Below are positions 1,323-8,787 of a stretch of 26,287 bases of DNA, piece by piece. Under the pieces are notes generated by a model, which saw nothing but the letters and a program-made list of their open reading frames with translations, made no database searches and was not told where the DNA came from. The stretch is taken from positions 1 to 26,287 of the forward strand of contig CAZDSN010000002.1 in NCBI GenBank assembly GCA_964507675.1, read 5' to 3'. The first letter of the stretch is position 1, and each line of letters begins with the position of its first letter. The position numbers were made by a program, and so were the translations under genes. The DNA is from an uncultured Ardenticatenaceae bacterium (GTDB taxonomy: Bacteria > Chloroflexota > Anaerolineae > Promineifilales > Promineifilaceae).

Positions 1323-2456
1323 ATGAAGCTTTCGTGCTTGCAAGAAAATCTGGCAAAGGGTTTGAGTACGGTGGCGCGGGCTGTGAGCACCCGATCCACC
1401 TTGCCTGTATTGTCGAATGTGTTGTTGGCTACCGACCATGGCCGGCTGAAACTGTCCGCCACCAACCTGGAAATTGTGATCACTTGCTGGATTGGGGCTA
1501 AGGTGGCTGATGGCGGGGCGATCACCGTGCCGGCACGTACCCTGAGCGACCTGGTGAATGCTTTGCCGGCAGAACTGATTGAGTTAACGCTGGAAGAGCA
1601 AACGCAAACGCTGCATCTGGCCTGCGCCCGCACTGAAGCGAACATTAAGGGGATTGATGCCCAGGAGTTCCCGCTGGTTCCTGAACCGCAGGCGGATAAT
1701 CAAATTCGCTTGGATACGGCGATGCTGAAGCAGATGATCAGCCAGGTTTCCTTTGCCGCGGCCACAGACGATACCCGTCCCATCTTAACGGGCGTGGCTA
1801 CTCATTTTGAAGGGAACCGCATCACTATGGCGGCAACGGACAGCTTCCGCCTTTCCACGCGCACGGCGGAGTTCCCCGGATTGCTGGCCGAGCCGGTGGA
1901 CATTATTATTCCGGCGCGGGCGCTCAACGAAGTGGCGCGTGTGGCCTCGGACGATGTGGAAACGATCACCCTGTCTATGCCGGCAGGTCGTAACCAGGTT
2001 ATTTTCAACATGGGAGATGCCGTCGTCGTGTCGCAGCTCATTGACGGCAACTTCCCCGATTTTTCCCGGCTCATTCCCGACAATTATGTGACGCGCACCG
2101 TGATGGGAACAGCGGAGTTTTTGAAGGCGTGCAAAACGGCTAACATTTTTGCCCGTGAGTCCAGCAACACGGCGCGCGTACAAGTGTCGCCGGGGAATGA
2201 GATCATGCCTGGCTACGCCACTATTGCCGCTACCAGCGCCGAAACCGGGGACAACATCGCCCAGGTGGATGCCAGCGTGGATGGGGAAGCCATCGAAATT
2301 GCCTTCAACGTCAAATATATGACGGATGTGCTGAGCGTAATAGATACACCGCAGGTGGCGCTGGAAACGCGCACGGCGCGGGAACCAGGGATACTAAAAC
2401 CGGTGGGGTATGATGGTTTCCGCCACGTGATCATGCCCATGCACTTTGGGCGTTAA
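1323..2456 (+). CDS. dnaN: DNA polymerase III beta sliding clamp
   Basis: 377 aa. STLPVLSNVLL, SATNLE, RPILTGV, ATDSFRLS, IAFNVKY and terminal HVIMPM are typical of DnaN. GGAG upstream of the ATG. Confidence 0.98.
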   Translation: MKLSCLQENLAKGLSTVARAVSTRSTLPVLSNVLLATDHGRLKLSATNLEIVITCWIGAKVADGGAITVPARTLSDLVNALPAELIELTLEEQTQTLHLACARTEANIKGIDAQEFPLVPEPQADNQIRLDTAMLKQMISQVSFAAATDDTRPILTGVATHFEGNRITMAATDSFRLSTRTAEFPGLLAEPVDIIIPARALNEVARVASDDVETITLSMPAGRNQVIFNMGDAVVVSQLIDGNFPDFSRLIPDNYVTRTVMGTAEFLKACKTANIFARESSNTARVQVSPGNEIMPGYATIAATSAETGDNIAQVDASVDGEAIEIAFNVKYMTDVLSVIDTPQVALETRTAREPGILKPVGYDGFRHVIMPMHFGR

Positions 2457-2480
2457 CCGGGCAGGCAGCGAGGAAGACAG

Positions 2481-2966
2481 ATGGCCGATCATCCCTTTAT
2501 GCAGGAGGTTCTTGCCGGCTGGCAGGTCTATCAAGACGATCTGGTGAAGGCGGTCAGGCCACTGACCGGCGAGCAGCTCAACTTGCGCCTGGCGGCTGAC
2601 TTGCGTTCCGCCATGACGCTGGCGGCGCACATCATTGCCGCGCGTGTATGGTGGCTTCGCATAGTGATGCACGAGGGATCAGCAGACGTTGAACCCCTGC
2701 TGAACTGGGATGAGGAGGGGGAACCATCTCGCAGCGCCGCGGAGCTGGTGGATGGCCTGGAGAGAACGTGGGCCATTATTGCTTCCGGGCTACAGCAGTG
2801 GACTGCCGCGGATATGGGGGAGGTGTTCTACCGTCCAGGGAGCGACCAGACCTACTCTTACACGCGCCAGTGGATTATCTGGCACGTGCTGGAGCATGAT
2901 TTACACCACGGCGGCGAACTCTCTTTTCTGTTAGGGGCGCATGGCGTGCCGGCAATTAGTCTATAA
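2481..2966 (+). CDS. DinB/YfiT-superfamily protein
   Basis: HIIAAR plus WHVLEHDLHHGGE His-triad pattern; SD-like GAGGAAG; 24 nt after dnaN. Confidence 0.85.
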   Translation: MADHPFMQEVLAGWQVYQDDLVKAVRPLTGEQLNLRLAADLRSAMTLAAHIIAARVWWLRIVMHEGSADVEPLLNWDEEGEPSRSAAELVDGLERTWAIIASGLQQWTAADMGEVFYRPGSDQTYSYTRQWIIWHVLEHDLHHGGELSFLLGAHGVPAISL

Positions 2967-3002
2967 GGGTGTATAACCTACGCCCCTTGTGTTGCCCTAA
3001 TT

Positions 3003-3054
3003 AAAGAAAAGGCCTCTTCCTCAAAGAAGAGGCCTCTTCTTTAGAGAAGAGGCT
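3003..3054. terminator. Tandem palindromic hairpins, probable bidirectional terminator
   Basis: Lies between convergent genes. Perfect 20-bp palindrome AAAGAAGAGGCCTCTTCTTT at 3023-3042 with degenerate copies on both sides. Confidence 0.6.
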
Positions 3055-3826
3055 GCAGCCAGTTCTCAACATAACTTGCCACCTCTTCCCAGCCCGGTTC
3101 CATAATCAGGGTATGGCTGCGCTTGGGGAATTCTTTGAAATCCGTTCGCGCGCGTGATTGGGCATACTTCTGGTAGTTTTGGCGATTCAGGGCAGCAGGC
3201 ACAGTTTTGTCTATACCACCGGCGGTAAGCAGCAGGGGGGCGCGGGTGTGATTGTGGAAATTGATGGCGAGCTCGTTGTGAAACATAGCGGTAGCCGCTT
3301 GAAAGAAAATGCGGCCGGGCGTGGGGACAACGTAAGTCCGAAAAGCGTTGGCTCGCTCTGTTTCGGGGAAGCCACTGGCGAAGAATTGGGAAAAGTGCGA
3401 CTCAGACGTCGTTAGAATTTTTCGCCATCCTCTCCAGGTAGTGATGACCGGTAAGCTGCCACGGACGGCGGCTGGCGTGGGAAATACGCCTTTAGGTGGG
3501 GCAGAGTTCAGGGCCACGCCGGCCCGGCCCAACCCCCGATCCAACAGCATTTGCGTAAACAGGCCGCCAAATGAATGTCCAATAATGATGGGCGGGTTCT
3601 GGAGTTGGGTGATAATGCCGGCATAATGCGCTACAATGTCGCCCACACCCAATGTTGCCAGCGCCGGCGAAGGCGCCGCCCGTAATTCCGCTATGGGCCG
3701 ATCATCATGAGGCCAATCAGGGGCCAGGCAGTCAAATCCTTTTGCTTGAAAATAACGGCTAAAGTTATCCCAGCAGCGTGATGTCACCCAGGCTCCATGA
3801 ATGAATACGATAGTTTGCTTGTTCAT
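3041..3826 (-). CDS. Alpha/beta hydrolase (esterase / non-heme haloperoxidase-like)
   Basis: Start moved to MNKQTIVFIHGAW. Nucleophile elbow GHSFGG, acid in GGIDKTVP, His in RSHTLIMEPGW. Confidence 0.9.
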   Translation of the reverse strand: MNKQTIVFIHGAWVTSRCWDNFSRYFQAKGFDCLAPDWPHDDRPIAELRAAPSPALATLGVGDIVAHYAGIITQLQNPPIIIGHSFGGLFTQMLLDRGLGRAGVALNSAPPKGVFPTPAAVRGSLPVITTWRGWRKILTTSESHFSQFFASGFPETERANAFRTYVVPTPGRIFFQAATAMFHNELAINFHNHTRAPLLLTAGGIDKTVPAALNRQNYQKYAQSRARTDFKEFPKRSHTLIMEPGWEEVASYVENWLQPLL

Positions 3827-3918
3827 GTTGTTTCTCTCACGTAGATGTGTATGTCTTATCAAATGAATGGGGTGCGGATAAAATTGTTTGGGCCGATGCC
3901 CACTATAATGGAGCAAAC

Positions 3919-4329
3919 ATGATCAGGTCAATAGCAGCCGTTACCCTCCTTGTGCGTGAATATGATGAGGCCATTGCCTTCTTTCGCAATGCTTTGCGCT
4001 TTACGCTGGTCGAAGACAAGCCGCTCGGCGGCAGCACGCGCTGGGTCGTCATGGCTCCGCCAGCGTCAGGCGGTATGTCTTTATTGTTGGCCAGGGCAGC
4101 AACGCCAGAGCAGCAGCATTATATAGGCAATCAGACCGGGGGGCGCGTCTTCCTTTTTCTACATACGAACGACTTCTGGACAGATTACAACCACATGCAA
4201 TCCCAGGGCGTGCGGTTCCTGGAACTGCCGCGCCAGGAGCCTTATGGCATAGTAGTTGTGTTTCTCGACCTCTACGGCAACAAGTGGGATCTCATCCAGC
4301 CCAGTGTAGAAGCCAGTATAACGGTCTAA
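3919..4329 (+). CDS. VOC/glyoxalase-family protein
   Basis: Start moved to the ATG at 3919 after GGAG (3910-3913). IAAVTLLVREYDEAIAFF and EPYGIVVVFLDLYGNKWDLIQ are typical VOC motifs. Confidence 0.9.
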   Translation: MIRSIAAVTLLVREYDEAIAFFRNALRFTLVEDKPLGGSTRWVVMAPPASGGMSLLLARAATPEQQHYIGNQTGGRVFLFLHTNDFWTDYNHMQSQGVRFLELPRQEPYGIVVVFLDLYGNKWDLIQPSVEASITV

Positions 4330-4348
4330 GGGCTAAAGCCTTTGCTAC
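4329..4348 (-). repeat. Single GTAG-type REP-like element
   Basis: Minus strand reads GTAG-CAA-AGGCT-TT-AGCCCT, in a convergent intergenic gap. Confidence 0.4.
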
Positions 4349-4361
4349 GAAAGACAGACCA

Positions 4362-5294
4362 CTAATCCAGATGGCTGAGAACGGTATGGTAAAGCGTTTC
4401 CGCGCGCAGATCGGCCAGGGAGAAGCAGGGAGCGTCCAGTTTTTCCGCCAGCAGGCGGGCTAACCCCTGGTCAAAGGCTTCATGTTCCATGTTAATGACG
4501 ACGGAGCGCACGCTGAACTCTTTGATCAGGTGGGCGATGCGGTGGGCCTCTTCCTGAGGAGGCAGGTCAGACATACTGACGTTGCCGGCGCCATCAGTGA
4601 GCAAAACCATCAGTGGCATCACGTCTGGATGCAGCAGAGATTCCTGGCGAAAGACATTGTAAGCCAGCAGCAGGCCGGCGGAGAGAGGGGTCTTGCCGCC
4701 AACGGCAATGTCGGCCAGTGTCCTTTGGGCCATCTGCACAGAGTTGGTGGGGGGCAGCACCAGCCGGGCGTCATTCTTATGGAACACAATCAGGCCGATG
4801 CGGTCGCGGCGAATATAGGCGTCTTTTAACAAAGACATGATAGCGCCTTTGGTGGCCTCCATGCGTTCCGAAACAGCCATACTCCAACTGGCATCAACCA
4901 CGAACAGAATCAGGTTGGCGGAGCGGCGTACGCGCACCTTTTCGCGCAGGTCGCTTTTTTCCAGGGCCAGAGCCAGATCTGTGCGGTCGCGGCGGCGCTG
5001 GTATGGCGCGGCCGCGCGCAGGGTGGCGTCAAAAGCCAGATCGGTTATTTTTTTGCCTTGTTGGGGGATACGAGCCTGGATGTAGCGGCCCCGTTTGCGC
5101 TTCGTCTTGGTACGGGAACGTTTGCCTGCCGTTTTGCGGGTGAGGCGATCGAGCTGCGTGTCCAGGCGGCGTGCTGTGAATTCAGGGGCAGATGGCATCT
5201 TTTGCCCACCTTCCCACCAGTGGCCTTCTTGCGGCGTTTGTGGCACGGTTTGAGGGGCGGCTTCGATCTGGCCGACGTCTGCCCCTTCGCGCAT
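4362..5294 (-). CDS. ChlD/BchD-like C-terminal linker + vWA domain (probably the frameshifted 3' half of the upstream gene)
   Basis: MIDAS motif VVDASWSM, GGKTPLSAGL, LLTDGAGN. No clear SD before ATG 5294, and the frame stays open upstream to 5345. Confidence 0.9.
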   Translation of the reverse strand: MREGADVGQIEAAPQTVPQTPQEGHWWEGGQKMPSAPEFTARRLDTQLDRLTRKTAGKRSRTKTKRKRGRYIQARIPQQGKKITDLAFDATLRAAAPYQRRRDRTDLALALEKSDLREKVRVRRSANLILFVVDASWSMAVSERMEATKGAIMSLLKDAYIRRDRIGLIVFHKNDARLVLPPTNSVQMAQRTLADIAVGGKTPLSAGLLLAYNVFRQESLLHPDVMPLMVLLTDGAGNVSMSDLPPQEEAHRIAHLIKEFSVRSVVINMEHEAFDQGLARLLAEKLDAPCFSLADLRAETLYHTVLSHLD

Positions 5295-5302
5295 TTCAGA
5301 AT

Positions 5303-6409
5303 CTAGCGCCTGTTTTTTTTTACCGGGCTGGTTTCTTCTTCGGAGTCAACCTGCTCCTGCATATCTCCCTGTCCCCATTCGCTTTGCGCCTGGTCCAGCC
5401 GTTGTTCCAGATCGTAGACGGAAACGGCGGCTTCCTGGAATGGTTGGTTCCGCAGGCGGTGGGGCAGGGCGAGTTCGGCGGCCAGCAGAATGTCGCGGTC
5501 GCTGATGTGGTCGCGCCCTTCAAAGGCGGCGTGTGCCTGCGCGCCGCGCAAAATCACCAGGTCTGCGCGGTGGCCGTCAACTTTCATGGCGGCGGTGAGT
5601 CCGGCAATGCCGGCAAGATCGCGCCGCGAATACCGCACTTTATTTACCAGATCGCGCGCCGTGGCGATTTGTGCCGATAGGCGGCGTTCCGATTCCTGCC
5701 ACTGGCTGCGAAACGTTTCTGGGTCGCTTTCAAAAGCAATTCGCCGCTCCATAATGTCCATGCGCTGGCGCGGGTCAGCCAGACCCGCAATTTGCACGGC
5801 AAAGGCAAACCGATCCAGCAATTGCGGGCGTAAATCCCCCTCTTCGGGGTTCATGGTTCCCACCAGAATGAACTTGGCCGGATGGGTAAAGCTAATGCCT
5901 TCCCGTTCCACCACGTTGACGCCCATGGCGGCGGAGTCCAGCAGCAGATCAACCACGTGATCGTCCAGCAAGTTTACTTCATCCACGTAGAGCAGCCCCC
6001 GGTTAGCGGAAGCCAGGACGCCTGATTCAAAATGCTTTTCCCCCTTCTGAATCGCTTTTTCAATATCCAGCGTGCCCACGACACGGTCTTCGGTAGCGCT
6101 GACCGGTAGATCAACGAAAGGGGTGCGGCGGGTGTTAATGCCCAGCGAGCCGCTGCTGTGGCGGCTGCGGCAGTCATCGCACCAACTGCTGGGCTGTCCA
6201 GGGTCGCAACCAAAGCGGCAGTCAGCCACAACGACAATGTCGGGCAGCAGGGCGGCCAGACCGCGCGCCGCCGTTGATTTGGCCGTGCCGCGTTCGCCAC
6301 GAATAAGGACACCACCGATTTGGGGGTTGACGGCGTTGAGGATGAGGGCGCGTTTCATGCGCTCCTGGTTAACGATGGCCGTAAACGGATAAACAGCGCG
6401 ATAGCTCAT
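5303..6409 (-). CDS. ChlI/BchI-like AAA+ ATPase (Mg/Co chelatase subunit I family)
   Basis: Start moved to MSYRAVYPF (368 aa). Walker A GERGTAKST, LPVSATEDRVVG, Walker B YVDEVNLL, GTMNPEEG and RPQLLDRF. Confidence 0.93.
   Translation of the reverse strand: MSYRAVYPFTAIVNQERMKRALILNAVNPQIGGVLIRGERGTAKSTAARGLAALLPDIVVVADCRFGCDPGQPSSWCDDCRSRHSSGSLGINTRRTPFVDLPVSATEDRVVGTLDIEKAIQKGEKHFESGVLASANRGLLYVDEVNLLDDHVVDLLLDSAAMGVNVVEREGISFTHPAKFILVGTMNPEEGDLRPQLLDRFAFAVQIAGLADPRQRMDIMERRIAFESDPETFRSQWQESERRLSAQIATARDLVNKVRYSRRDLAGIAGLTAAMKVDGHRADLVILRGAQAHAAFEGRDHISDRDILLAAELALPHRLRNQPFQEAAVSVYDLEQRLDQAQSEWGQGDMQEQVDSEEETSPVKKNRR
5313..5321 (-). other. A9 slippery run, candidate -1 frameshift / transcriptional slippage site
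   Basis: GTA AAA AAA AAC AGG CGC TAG in frame 0; the -1 frame reads AAA CAG GCG CTA GAT TCT GAA ATG into the vWA ORF. Confidence 0.7.
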
Positions 6410-6458
6410 AAAGAAACACTCTCCAATGATTTGGCTCCCAACAGGTGGGAGCGATTGG

Positions 6459-6486
6459 ATTATACTGCAAGGAGAGATGAGATCAA
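6459..6486 (-). promoter_or_regulatory. sigma70-type promoter of the chlI/D-like locus
   Basis: Minus strand TTGATC (6486-6481), 16-bp spacer, TATAAT (6464-6459). Confidence 0.6.
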
Positions 6487-6578
6487 GCCGGTTTGGGCAG
6501 TGCCGGCAGAGTTGGGGCAGATGAGTGTACTCGAAGGGGCTGCGAATGGGGTTACCGGGGATAGCGTTCAGGCTCTGC

Positions 6579-7277
6579 TCAGATAAGCCTGGCTTGCAGC
6601 AATTTTCGCTGGCGCGCGTGCGCCAACCAGAGGACGTCGCCCACCCAGACCAGTCCCATGGGCAAAAAGTCAAGGGCAAAGCGGTTGACTTCGCGCCCAT
6701 CGGCAGGGTCAATTTGGGCCAGCCCAAAGCGCATCTGGCCGGCAACCCAGTCAAACGACTCCGATACGGGATCATAGGTCATGCGGTCAGGGAAACCCAG
6801 CCACAGATACCCGTCATGAAAATCTAGTCCGCCGGCAGCCACCGGGGCCGGCAGGGTGCGCTGCACCTGGCCTTTATGGGGATCAACAGCCAGGAGATGG
6901 CCTTGTTGCTGGGCCACGGTCCACAGCAGGTGGCCATCCCAGGCCAACCCTGTCAGCCAGCCGTGGTTGATGGGCAAGTCCATGTCAATGTCGTGGGCCG
7001 CCGGATTGAGGCAGCGCAGCACGCCTTCATTGTAGATGGCCTGCCAGAGTGAGTGGCCGTCCCACGTAGAGCCACTAAGGGTGCCTGGGCATAGGAGTTC
7101 GTCGGTGGGGGTGAGTCTGCCGGCTTCTGTCTGGCTGGCTTCCAGCCCCCCAATATCTAACTGGAAAATGCGCGCCGCCCCATAGTCGGCGTTCCACAAG
7201 TGCACGCCATCCCAGGCTAACCCGGCTGGGGCGCGCCCTGGGGCCGTGAATTCCCGCACAATAATCAAAGTGGTCAT
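6579..7277 (-). CDS. Five-repeat beta-propeller protein (glutaminyl-cyclase/YncE/Vgb-like fold), function unknown
   Basis: Start moved to MTTLIIV, whose ATG overlaps the aroF stop (TAATG). Five GL(A/x)W(D/x)G-x2-LW-like repeats. Confidence 0.75.
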   Translation of the reverse strand: MTTLIIVREFTAPGRAPAGLAWDGVHLWNADYGAARIFQLDIGGLEASQTEAGRLTPTDELLCPGTLSGSTWDGHSLWQAIYNEGVLRCLNPAAHDIDMDLPINHGWLTGLAWDGHLLWTVAQQQGHLLAVDPHKGQVQRTLPAPVAAGGLDFHDGYLWLGFPDRMTYDPVSESFDWVAGQMRFGLAQIDPADGREVNRFALDFLPMGLVWVGDVLWLAHARQRKLLQARLI

Positions 7278-8296
7278 TATGTGATATCCCGTCCAACTGC
7301 CTGGGCCACAGCTCGCATTTCTCGCACCAGTGTAGCAAAATATTCCGGTTTCAGCGACTGCCGCCCATCGGATAGCGCTTCTTCGGGGCGGGGATGGACT
7401 TCGATAATCACCCCATCGGCGCCAGCAGCCACGCTGGCTTTGGCCGCCGCTCCCACATATTCCCATTTGCCTGTAGCGTGGCTGGGGTCGGCGATGACGG
7501 GCAGGTGGGACAGGTGCTTCACAACGGGGATGGCATTGATGTCAAATGTGTTGCGCGTATACTTCTCAAAAGTACGGATGCCGCGCTCGCACAACATAAC
7601 GCGGGTGTTGCCGTGGCTGAGGATGTATTCGGCGCACATGAGCCACTCTTCCATCAGGCTGCTCATGCCTCGCTTGAGCAGCACCGGGTGCTGCGACTCG
7701 CCGACGGCGTGCAGCAGGGCGTAATTCTGCATATTGCGCGCCCCGATCTGGAGTACGTCTGCATATTCACACACCAGGGGGACGAGCGAGGGTTCCAAGA
7801 CTTCAGTGATAATGGGCAGTCCGGTGATGTCGCGAGCTTCGGCCAGGTAGCGCAGACCTGCTTCGCCCATGCCCTGGAAGGCGTAGGGAGAACTGCGCGG
7901 CTTGAAGGCGCCGCCGCGCAGCACGTGCGCCCCGGCCTCTTTACATGCAATAGCGGTTTCAATGATCTGGCTGCGGCTTTCCACCGAACAGGGACCGGCC
8001 ATGATGATCAGATTTTTGTCGCCAACGGTGTGGTCGCCAATGGGAAAGACGGTGTTGTCGGCTTTGAATTCGCGGCTGGCCAGTTTGAAGGGTTGGGTGA
8101 CGGGGACGACGCGCTCCACGCCTGGAATCTGTTCCAGGGATTCGCGATCAATTTTGCAGCCGTCCTCGACGATACCCAGCACCGTGCGCTCTTTGCCTTC
8201 AGAGATGTGGACTTTGCAGCCCTGATCTTCCACGCGGGCAATAACGGCGGAGATGTCGCGCATGCCGGCATCTGATTTCATAATCACAAGCATCAT
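7277..8296 (-). CDS. aroF: 3-deoxy-7-phosphoheptulonate (DAHP) synthase, type I-beta with N-terminal regulatory domain
   Basis: Start at ATG 8296 or 8293 after GGAGGT. Motifs [46 protein letters not shown]. Confidence 0.96.
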
Positions 8297-8787
8297 GGAA
8301 CCACCTCCATGGCGCCCAGGTCCCCCTTGATAGCGGCTTCCAACTCGGCTGGGGGGATGGGGGGCAGGGTCTGGCGATCTGGACGCAAAGATTGTGCTTC
8401 GTGTAGATAAACGTGTACGATGTCGGTTTGCGACCGCTGCGTATTCCAATGAATCAGCACACGGATGCAGCCAGGCAGACCATCGGGCACATCCATTTCG
8501 TGCCCGCATATCAAGGCTACATCATACCACCCCAACTGCCGCGCTGCCAGAGCCGGGTAGGTGGCGTTCAGGTCTCTGGTCGTAGTGAAATAGACGCTGG
8601 CCACGTCTTCTGAGCGAATGTTGTTGGCGCGGATCATGACATACAGCAGTTCCCGCGTTGCCGCCAGGATTGCTTCCTTGCTGTTTTCCGCGGCCACCGT
8701 GGCCCCGCGCACACCACGGCACATTAGCGGATACGAAATCATATTTTCCGGGAAAGGGTAGGCTCCATTTGCCTGTTGCTCACGCAT
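8293..8787 (-). CDS. aroH: Chorismate mutase, AroH class, with terminal extensions
   Basis: [49 protein letters not shown]. Strong AGGAGG before ATG 8787; the core starts at 8724. Confidence 0.93.

Follow-up and report, generated by a model that had tools for sequence, protein, structure and literature searches.

How are the two halves of a chelatase-type protein expressed when they are encoded in different reading frames of the same strand? This question is raised by a locus in the contig CAZDSN010000002.1 of an uncultured Ardenticatenaceae bacterium (NCBI GenBank assembly GCA_964507675.1), the first 26,287 nucleotides of which constitute the whole stretch of DNA analyzed in this study (hereafter the window). 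The gene in question occupies positions 4362..6409 of the minus strand (to which all features of this gene given below belong) and combines a ChlI-like AAA+ module, an acidic/Pro-rich and basic linker, and a vWA domain with the MIDAS motif. Read with one -1 slip, it specifies a long product of 682 amino acids (aa). The anatomy of the gene, the run of nine adenines (A9) at the junction of its two frames and the conservation of this arrangement indicate that it is very probably one recoded chlD-type gene, which would yield both a short and a long product. The locus is a further member of the recoding class published as fs-chlD, and no new mechanism is involved.

Anatomy of a chlD-type gene in two frames

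In the standard frame (frame 0), a ChlI-like AAA+ ATPase of 368 aa, i.e. the short product, is encoded at 5303..6409, and its translation runs from ATG 6409..6407 to the stop codon TAG at 5305..5303. The automatic list of open reading frames (ORFs) places the start of this ORF upstream, at ATG 6775. ATG 6409 is preferred to it because a direct reading of the letters reveals GGAGAG (6419..6424), a hexamer resembling a Shine-Dalgarno (SD) sequence, 9 nt 5' of this codon. The homology of the frame-0 product also begins at Met 6409, both within its own genome and among relatives, whose matches extend from residue 1.

Frame 0 terminates as ...SPVKKNRR*, with the stop codon 7 nt beyond the A9 run, and the minus-strand letters of the junction are ...ACC AGC CCG GTA AAA AAA AAC AGG CGC TAG. 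Upstream of the run, the -1 frame is interrupted by TGA at 5348..5346; its translation from there is LRRRNQPGKKKQALDSEMREG... up to the stop codon at 4364..4362, and this segment (4362..5345) encodes the linker and the vWA domain. Downstream of TGA 5348..5346 this frame reads ...GKKKQALDSEMREG... and stays open as far as 4364..4362. The frameshift box thus defined, from the -1-frame stop to the frame-0 stop, spans 5303..5348 and gives the two open frames an overlap of 43 nt. Within this overlap lies the A9 slip site (5313..5321; T9 on the plus strand), which is read in frame 0 as GUA AAA AAA AAC and includes the heptamers A_AAA_AAA and A_AAA_AAC. One -1 slip on the run, or one A added to it in the RNA, joins 366, 6 and 310 residues into a protein of 682. 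The initial annotation, made from the letters alone, had described the same end of frame 0, the same opening of the -1 frame from 5345 and the same 43-nt overlap, all of which are borne out by both translations. The product lengths of 368 and 682 aa that it gave are correct, and the A9 run that it had located inside the overlap is now placed exactly at 5313-5321.

The arrangement is best explained by a single gene of the chlD type in which a one-base slip is programmed. With standard reading, translation from ATG 6409 would give the 368-aa ChlI-like ATPase, ending at TAG 5305..5303; in a fraction of expression events, a slip into the -1 frame at the A9 run would extend the chain through ...VKKKQALDSEM... 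into the linker and the vWA/MIDAS domain, resulting in a ChlD-like protein of 682 aa. A single promoter and a single start codon would in this manner supply both partners of a ChlI/ChlD-type AAA+ motor, and their ratio would be set by the frequency of the slip. The -1 frame also contains an ATG at 5292..5294, the candidate independent start of a 310-aa vWA protein. No GGAGG-like sequence precedes it, in agreement with the initial annotation, which had seen no clear SD there, and this ATG is probably a mere internal Met codon.

Domain composition of the two products

The short product matches the BchI-ChlI model TIGR02030 (415 bits) as well as the Pfam families Mg_chelatase and AAA_lid_2. It aligns over the whole AAA+ module with the solved ChlI structure 6L8D (E 2e-98), including the Walker B, sensor and Arg-finger segments, and LYVDEVNLLDDH, NPEEG and RPQLLDRF are conserved in this alignment. 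Further solved chelatase structures available for comparison are ChlI 8OSF, BchI 1G8P and BchD 2X31. The ChlI-type AAA+ motif set (Walker A and B, sensor and Arg finger) is therefore present in the short product, with a P-loop that has Ala for Gly. This Walker A motif, identified by alignment to 6L8D, is GERGTAKST (6272..6298), in which Ala replaces the Gly preceding the catalytic Lys, while 6L8D has GDRGTGKST. The same GERGTAKST was found in 99 of the 102 motif hits among related loci, and a separate ChlI paralogue of the same genome has the P-loop GSRGTAKTT. This subfamily of ChlD type may be characterized by such an Ala-for-Gly P-loop.

The second frame encodes an acidic/Pro-rich linker, then a basic linker, and finally the vWA domain with the MIDAS motif DASWS, which is matched by Pfam VWA_2 and VWA; the vWA half is also similar to the BchD vWA chain 2X31_A (E 1e-17). 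The relationship of the two parts to the solved ChlI and BchD leaves no doubt. When the two parts were joined (with X at the break), the resulting protein covered positions 1-640 of the 641 of the ChlD-type model TIGR02442, 'putative cobaltochelatase', with a score of 772 bits, which is slightly below the cut-off of this model (779 bits). The separate halves match positions 1-350 and 383-640. In a search of the genome, positions 1-353 and 342-640 were covered by two pieces, the second of which extends from 5321 downwards; with positions 342-353 shared by the pieces on either side of the break, the model runs across it.

Conservation of the break and of the run

The vWA half was used as a query against 40 related genomes and was present in 34 of them, including 22 of the 24 genomes of the same family. 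Both halves were found at 29 loci, counting that of the window, and 27 of these have the -1 break and a run of A9-A11 in the overlap (26 of 28 if only relatives are counted), and the run lengths in this set are 9 (22 loci), 10 (6) and 11 (1). A scan of GTDB species representatives provided 80 additional loci, 77 of which were evaluable. The titles of the 80 entries are Chloroflexota/Anaerolineae (Promineifilaceae, Ardenticatenaceae, Anaerolineales and Aggregatilineales), with the exception of three (Zixiibacteriota, a Patescibacteria group and Sulfomarinibacteraceae). The -1 break was found in 76 of the 77, with runs of A8 (3 loci), A9 (61), A10 (11) and A11 (1). After removal of duplicates, 91 distinct -1 loci remained, all of them with an A8-A11 run; the run comprises at least 9 residues in 88 and is shorter than 8 in none. 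Both parts of the comparison with orthologues suggested by the initial annotation thus gave a clear result, i.e. the run and the frame-0 stop are kept among relatives.

At the nucleotide level, the junction alignment of 29 species has a mean column identity of 50%, and the run stands out as its one invariant block. A TAA or TGA codon overlapping the first adenines of the run closes the -1 frame in 20 related loci; in these the -1 frame opens inside the run, and a change of frame can only occur within it. The peptide of the -1 frame has a conserved sequence starting at the run, KKK[Q]A[L/V][D/E][S/A][E/D]. In contrast, Met at the position of 5294 is restricted to the genus and one other locus, and elsewhere this position is occupied by Ser, Glu, Val, Ala and other residues. 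Conservation of the peptide from the run and the narrow distribution of this Met argue against an independent start, which the initial annotation had considered as the alternative to its own proposal.

The end of the short product is constrained as well. In about nine loci of ten the frame-0 stop lies at most 13 nt past the run, and it is mostly formed by an NTA codon of the -1 frame together with the following G, although CTA and TTA make up only 11% of the Leu codons of the same genes. The use of these rare codons and the proximity of the stop suggest that early termination of the short product is under selection, as it appears from the aligned loci. Both halves show 60-97% protein identity to those of relatives, with intact motifs, and the break recurs in about 100 species-level genomes, nearly closed long-read assemblies among them.

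Single-frame fused homologues, with open frames of 625-736 aa, were identified in four genomes (G030, G032, G037 and G039). Three in-frame relatives retain the run, namely L034 (A10), L038 (A9) and L099 (A10). L034 (junction region 2391-2510) is in frame by virtue of an extra G just past the run, and the TAG at which its +1 frame ends is the one that terminates the short product in its nearest relative. In L038 (junction region 1236-1354) the -1 frame stops 15 nt past the run, so that a slip would lead to the short product in place of the long one. In these three species, default reading would yield the long form and a slip the short one; judging by the sequences, the device is kept even where the default product is swapped.

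Authenticity of the A9 run

The source genome is a metagenome-assembled genome (MAG) of 4.9 Mb, with 57.6% GC, 950 contigs and a completeness of 87.6%. Whether its A9 is genuine was examined with assembled contigs (Logan) of public sequencing runs, a type of data in which minority forms are dropped. Four of them span the run, all without indels: DNA contig X1 (5183-5344, no differences), which possibly derives from the sample that gave the MAG, DNA contig X3 of a different study (5291-5632, 4 substitutions), and RNA-library contigs X15 (5181-5429, 1 substitution) and X16 (5193-5343, no differences). The choice between A9 and A10, which the initial annotation had treated as decisive, is thus made in favour of A9 by contigs of two DNA runs and two RNA libraries, and the A9 is not an assembly error. 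The two RNA-library contigs show A9 at a word depth of 2, and carry-over of DNA is possible in them. Because contigs hide minority forms, the question is settled for the DNA, but not for a share of A10 transcripts. In X3 there is a break between unitigs, whose 30-nt overlap (5291-5320) ends within the run; around the run, 20 nt (5309-5328) are also present in a contig from another organism. Variation in the homopolymer or the presence of related strains could account for this break.

Runs of this length are rare in the genome. The whole 4.9 Mb contain ten A/T runs of at least 9 in total, and among these only 5313-5321 is located where one long open frame ends and another starts; the chance of an A/T run of at least 9 within a given 43-nt box is about 1e-4. 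Another A9 run (G000:C118:4877-4885) is situated 76 nt into a frame that is open for another 4.2 kb and may thus be close to the 5' end of a very long gene. The remaining eight are intergenic-looking or fall within short frames.

Alternatives to programmed recoding

Three explanations would dispense with programmed recoding. A homopolymer error in a single in-frame gene, or a recent frameshifted pseudogene, would be a natural suspicion in a MAG fragmented into 950 contigs, since homopolymers are error-prone. This is scarcely credible here, as four independent contig sets agree on A9, the identical break is present in about 100 species-level genomes (including the nearly closed long-read assemblies), and both halves keep their motifs at the protein identities given above; the A9 contigs and the GTDB species scan refute it for practical purposes. 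Phase variation, in which slippage of DNA polymerase would toggle a population between A9 cells with the short product alone and A10 cells with the long product alone, finds some encouragement in the fact that poly-A tracts are slippery in replication too (PMC3711429) and in the in-frame A10 relatives L034 and L099. It is nonetheless very improbable. The -1 relation is maintained in the 91 distinct loci irrespective of run length (owing to a different phase, runs of A10 and A11 are -1 as well), L034 is in frame through the extra G past the run and not through the run itself, the DNA contigs of two studies show A9 only, and the product is a cytoplasmic ATPase, not a surface protein.

Two separate genes would be another possibility, in which the vWA protein is started at ATG 5294 by translational coupling or re-initiation after TAG and no fusion is formed. 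The ATG lies 8-9 nt past the frame-0 stop, and public annotation pipelines are known to split such pairs (PMC3711429). Against this, in addition to the missing SD, the limited occurrence of the Met and the conservation of the peptide upstream of 5294, the -1 frame opens only inside the run in 20 loci, the same class has in-frame fused homologues (625-736 aa), and the ChlD-type model TIGR02442 spans the break. We therefore consider this arrangement unlikely, if somewhat less so than phase variation.

Polymerase or ribosomal slippage

Given a programmed slip, which machine slips? On balance, slippage of RNA polymerase, by which an extra A would be introduced into the transcript, is the probable main route, and polymerase and ribosome may both contribute. 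Polymerase slippage is favoured because no conserved downstream RNA structure and no upstream SD were found and because the runs nearly always comprise at least 9 residues. A ribosomal heptamer needs 7 adenines, yet at least 9 are held in 88 of the 91 distinct loci of the clade. A run of 8 nt or longer is the published criterion of programmed transcriptional realignment (PMC3711429), and an A/T run of about 8-9 or more with a conserved length class is what the A8-A11 loci display. In E. coli reporters with three chlD-family cassettes, the shifted product amounted to 10% with A7, 40% with A9 and 63% with A11 (PMC3711429).

Stimulatory elements were sought on both sides of the run. RNAalifold predicted 0 pairs in the 80 nt past the run in the 29-species alignment, and single-sequence folds of 70 nt past the run in these 29 species were no stabler than their shuffles (z from -2.3 to +1.6). 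No conserved SD-like motif was present upstream in the 29-species junction alignment. An Rfam scan of 5100-5500 returned only a sub-threshold chance hit to a microRNA, and no strong hairpin was found 5-9 nt past the run of the window, as the initial annotation had also stated in support of its view, likewise upheld here, that slippage in transcription is no less plausible than a ribosomal shift. A GGGGCC...GGCCCC pairing about 25 nt downstream was rejected as a candidate stimulator; it lacks compensatory changes and reflects the conserved codons of E-G-A...A-G-P.

Purely ribosomal -1 frameshifting, in which all transcripts would be A9 and tRNA-Lys on A_AAA_AAA (or Lys/Asn on A_AAA_AAC) would slip back by one base as in dnaX, is a serious but less probable explanation. 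Frame 0 does hold canonical X_XXY_YYZ heptamers, GU[A AAA AAA] and A[A AAA AAC], A9 is what both RNA-library contigs show, and fs-chlD was published as programmed ribosomal frameshifting (PMC9227772). What such a site would be expected to have in addition is missing from the results: a conserved hairpin or pseudoknot was not found downstream (no pairs in RNAalifold and z-scores that are not significant), the sole recurrent pairing, that of GGGGCC with GGCCCC, is some 25 nt off and has no compensatory change, and an SD-like stimulator was not found upstream. Moreover, 8-11 adenines are retained where 7 suffice, the efficiency in reporters climbs with run length, as polymerase slippage predicts, and minority A10 transcripts would be invisible in contigs.

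Several points weigh against programmed recoding as read here, or against polymerase slippage as its main route. Heterogeneity of transcripts or products was not seen; the public data are assembled contigs, the two from RNA libraries being at the template A9, and as minority forms are lost in such contigs they speak neither for nor against slippage. Perfect -1 heptamers occur in every phase of the run. Three loci have only A8. The literature on the family names ribosomal frameshifting and describes downstream structures in other lineages (PMC9227772). To these may be added the small chance that, in this genus, a vWA-only protein is made from ATG 5294.

Comparison with known recoded genes and chelatases

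Recoding of chlD was reportedly treated at depth by Antonov in 2020. Poly-A recoding in 'magnesium chelatase'/chlD genes was found and tested with reporters in 2013, in a set that includes the Chloroflexota genus Herpetosiphon (Antonov et al. 2013, PMC3711429), and a catalogue of fs-chlD from 2022 covers over 1200 genomes, those of Anaerolineae among them (Kuznetsov et al. 2022, PMC9227772). The initial annotation had correctly pointed to such recoding. The Anaerolineae genera listed in 2022 are Anaerolinea, Ornatilinea, Longilinea, Levilinea and Brevefilum, and the genotype described for the class consists of fs-chlD, sometimes with a separate chlI, without a large subunit and without a pathway, the function of such orphan ChlI/ChlD pairs being posed as a question (PMC9227772).

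The locus resembles these genes in several respects. An AAA+ frame of ChlI type and a vWA frame are connected through a -1 shift at a poly-A run, short and medium subunits would derive from one gene, in-frame fused homologues exist, and the phylum and class are the same. A separate chlI paralogue without a detected large subunit corresponds to 'stage 1-2' of PMC9227772. The sequence features that define fs-chlD were found here: the two frames together make up the full-length ChlD model, the A run lies in the -1 overlap and is conserved between diverged flanks, and there are fused homologues. The present copy differs in that it comes from an uncultured activated-sludge MAG of Promineifilaceae/Ardenticatenaceae type, unlisted in PMC3711429 and PMC9227772, in that no conserved downstream RNA structure, which is usual in the family (PMC9227772), was found in this clade, and in that most runs comprise 9 adenines or more, a distribution suggestive of polymerase slippage rather than ribosomal shifting. 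Absence of the downstream stimulatory structure is the one departure from the published features, and this structure is accessory and not a requirement, since poly-A sites worked in reporters as short cassettes (PMC3711429).

A further system for comparison is dnaX, which encodes tau and gamma. Here, too, two proteins share an N-terminal AAA+ module, the slip takes place on a run of lysine codons, and both products serve one ATPase machine. In E. coli, dnaX undergoes a -1 ribosomal frameshift on A_AAA_AAG with an upstream SD and a downstream hairpin, whereas in Thermus thermophilus transcriptional slippage on an A9 run of dnaX was reportedly described by Larsen et al. in 2000. The slip in dnaX leads to the shorter product and the one proposed here to the longer, the protein families are different, and the SD and hairpin of E. 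coli were not found at this locus. Of the elements of a dnaX-type site, the heptamer is thus present, and the upstream SD and the stem-loop at 5-9 nt are lacking.

With class I chelatases (ChlI/ChlD/ChlH, equivalent to BchIDH, and CobN/CobS/CobT) the locus shares the ChlI alignment, the match of its vWA half to BchD and the ChlD domain order of AAA+, acidic/Pro linker and vWA/MIDAS. It differs from them in the P-loop GERGTAKST, and CobN/ChlH, CbiC, CobQ and CbiX were not found in its genome. Since neither the large subunit nor the pathway was found, the components of a working class I chelatase are incomplete, and such an activity is not supported by the gene content.

Chelatase partners and gene neighbourhood

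Matches to CobN/ChlH (PF02514) numbered 0 in the genome of the window (87.6% complete), and none were found in 24 genomes of the family and 7 of the order, several of which are nearly closed, while control genomes were positive. CobQ, CbiC and CbiX were likewise not found in the genome of the window, and CbiC was found in 0 of the 24 family genomes (the search did not extend to chlorophyll genes). A MAG of 950 contigs and 87.6% completeness is by itself weak ground for claiming absence, and the absence from 24 family genomes is stronger.

Because the large subunit and the markers of the corrin pathway were not found, 'chelatase' is a name given by homology. The designation 'two chelatase-type subunits' in the initial annotation therefore stands as regards a recoded ChlI/ChlD-type gene, and its 'chelatase' part holds by homology only, no large subunit having been found. 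Without a detected large subunit or corrin pathway, insertion of cobalt or magnesium is improbable, and the downstream job of the two products is probably a different one. Tentatively, and with slightly less than even confidence, we propose that the recoded gene of Promineifilaceae-type Anaerolineae encodes no chelatase but a self-contained AAA+/vWA-MIDAS motor, whose subunit ratio would be set by RNA-polymerase slippage and whose client would be other than CobN/ChlH. The Ala-for-Gly P-loop, which is family-wide, could be part of such a non-chelatase specialisation.

The genome has a second, separate ChlI-like gene (41% identity with the short product), whose two parts lie at contig ends (L003:1396-2244 in G000:C406, where it runs off the end, and L004:1-468 in G000:C364, at the contig start) and which is followed by a 214-aa ORF with no family match. 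It fits the genotype 'fs-chlD plus separate chlI' of Anaerolineae.

The neighbourhood of the gene is conserved in the family (window 1323-8509 and loci L039-L118), with the order DAHP synthase, a variable ORF, fs-chlD, dnaN (convergent) and a SpoU methylase; DAHP synthase is thus located upstream of fs-chlD, and dnaN and the SpoU methylase downstream. Genes for a glyoxalase-fold protein (3847-4329), an alpha/beta hydrolase (3041-3916) and a DinB-family protein (2481-2966) lie between chlD and dnaN in this genus. Directly upstream of the chlD-type gene lies an ORF of 295 aa (6579-7466, minus strand), which matches no Pfam or NCBIfam family, shows a faint similarity to DUF6923 (E 0.008) and has relatives in only 9 of the fetched loci. 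Clustering of flanking ORFs in 80 loci, in search of a candidate client by neighbourhood, returned only the family synteny and shadow ORFs, and no such candidate.

Significance

The recoding device itself has been published and reporter-tested since 2013 and was described for this class, so that the locus adds little new biology in this respect. For annotation it follows that the separate entries 'ChlI-like ATPase' and 'vWA protein' should be replaced by a single recoded gene of chlD type that has two products, and this applies to roughly a hundred species-level genomes of Anaerolineae. As to the mechanism, the evidence from the clade (runs of at least 9, no conserved stimulatory RNA found, and in-frame variants that keep the run) favours the polymerase over the ribosomal mechanism of the literature. 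Finally, the gene is under clear selection in a family in which CobN/ChlH and corrin synthesis were not found, which turns the function of its two products into a testable question.

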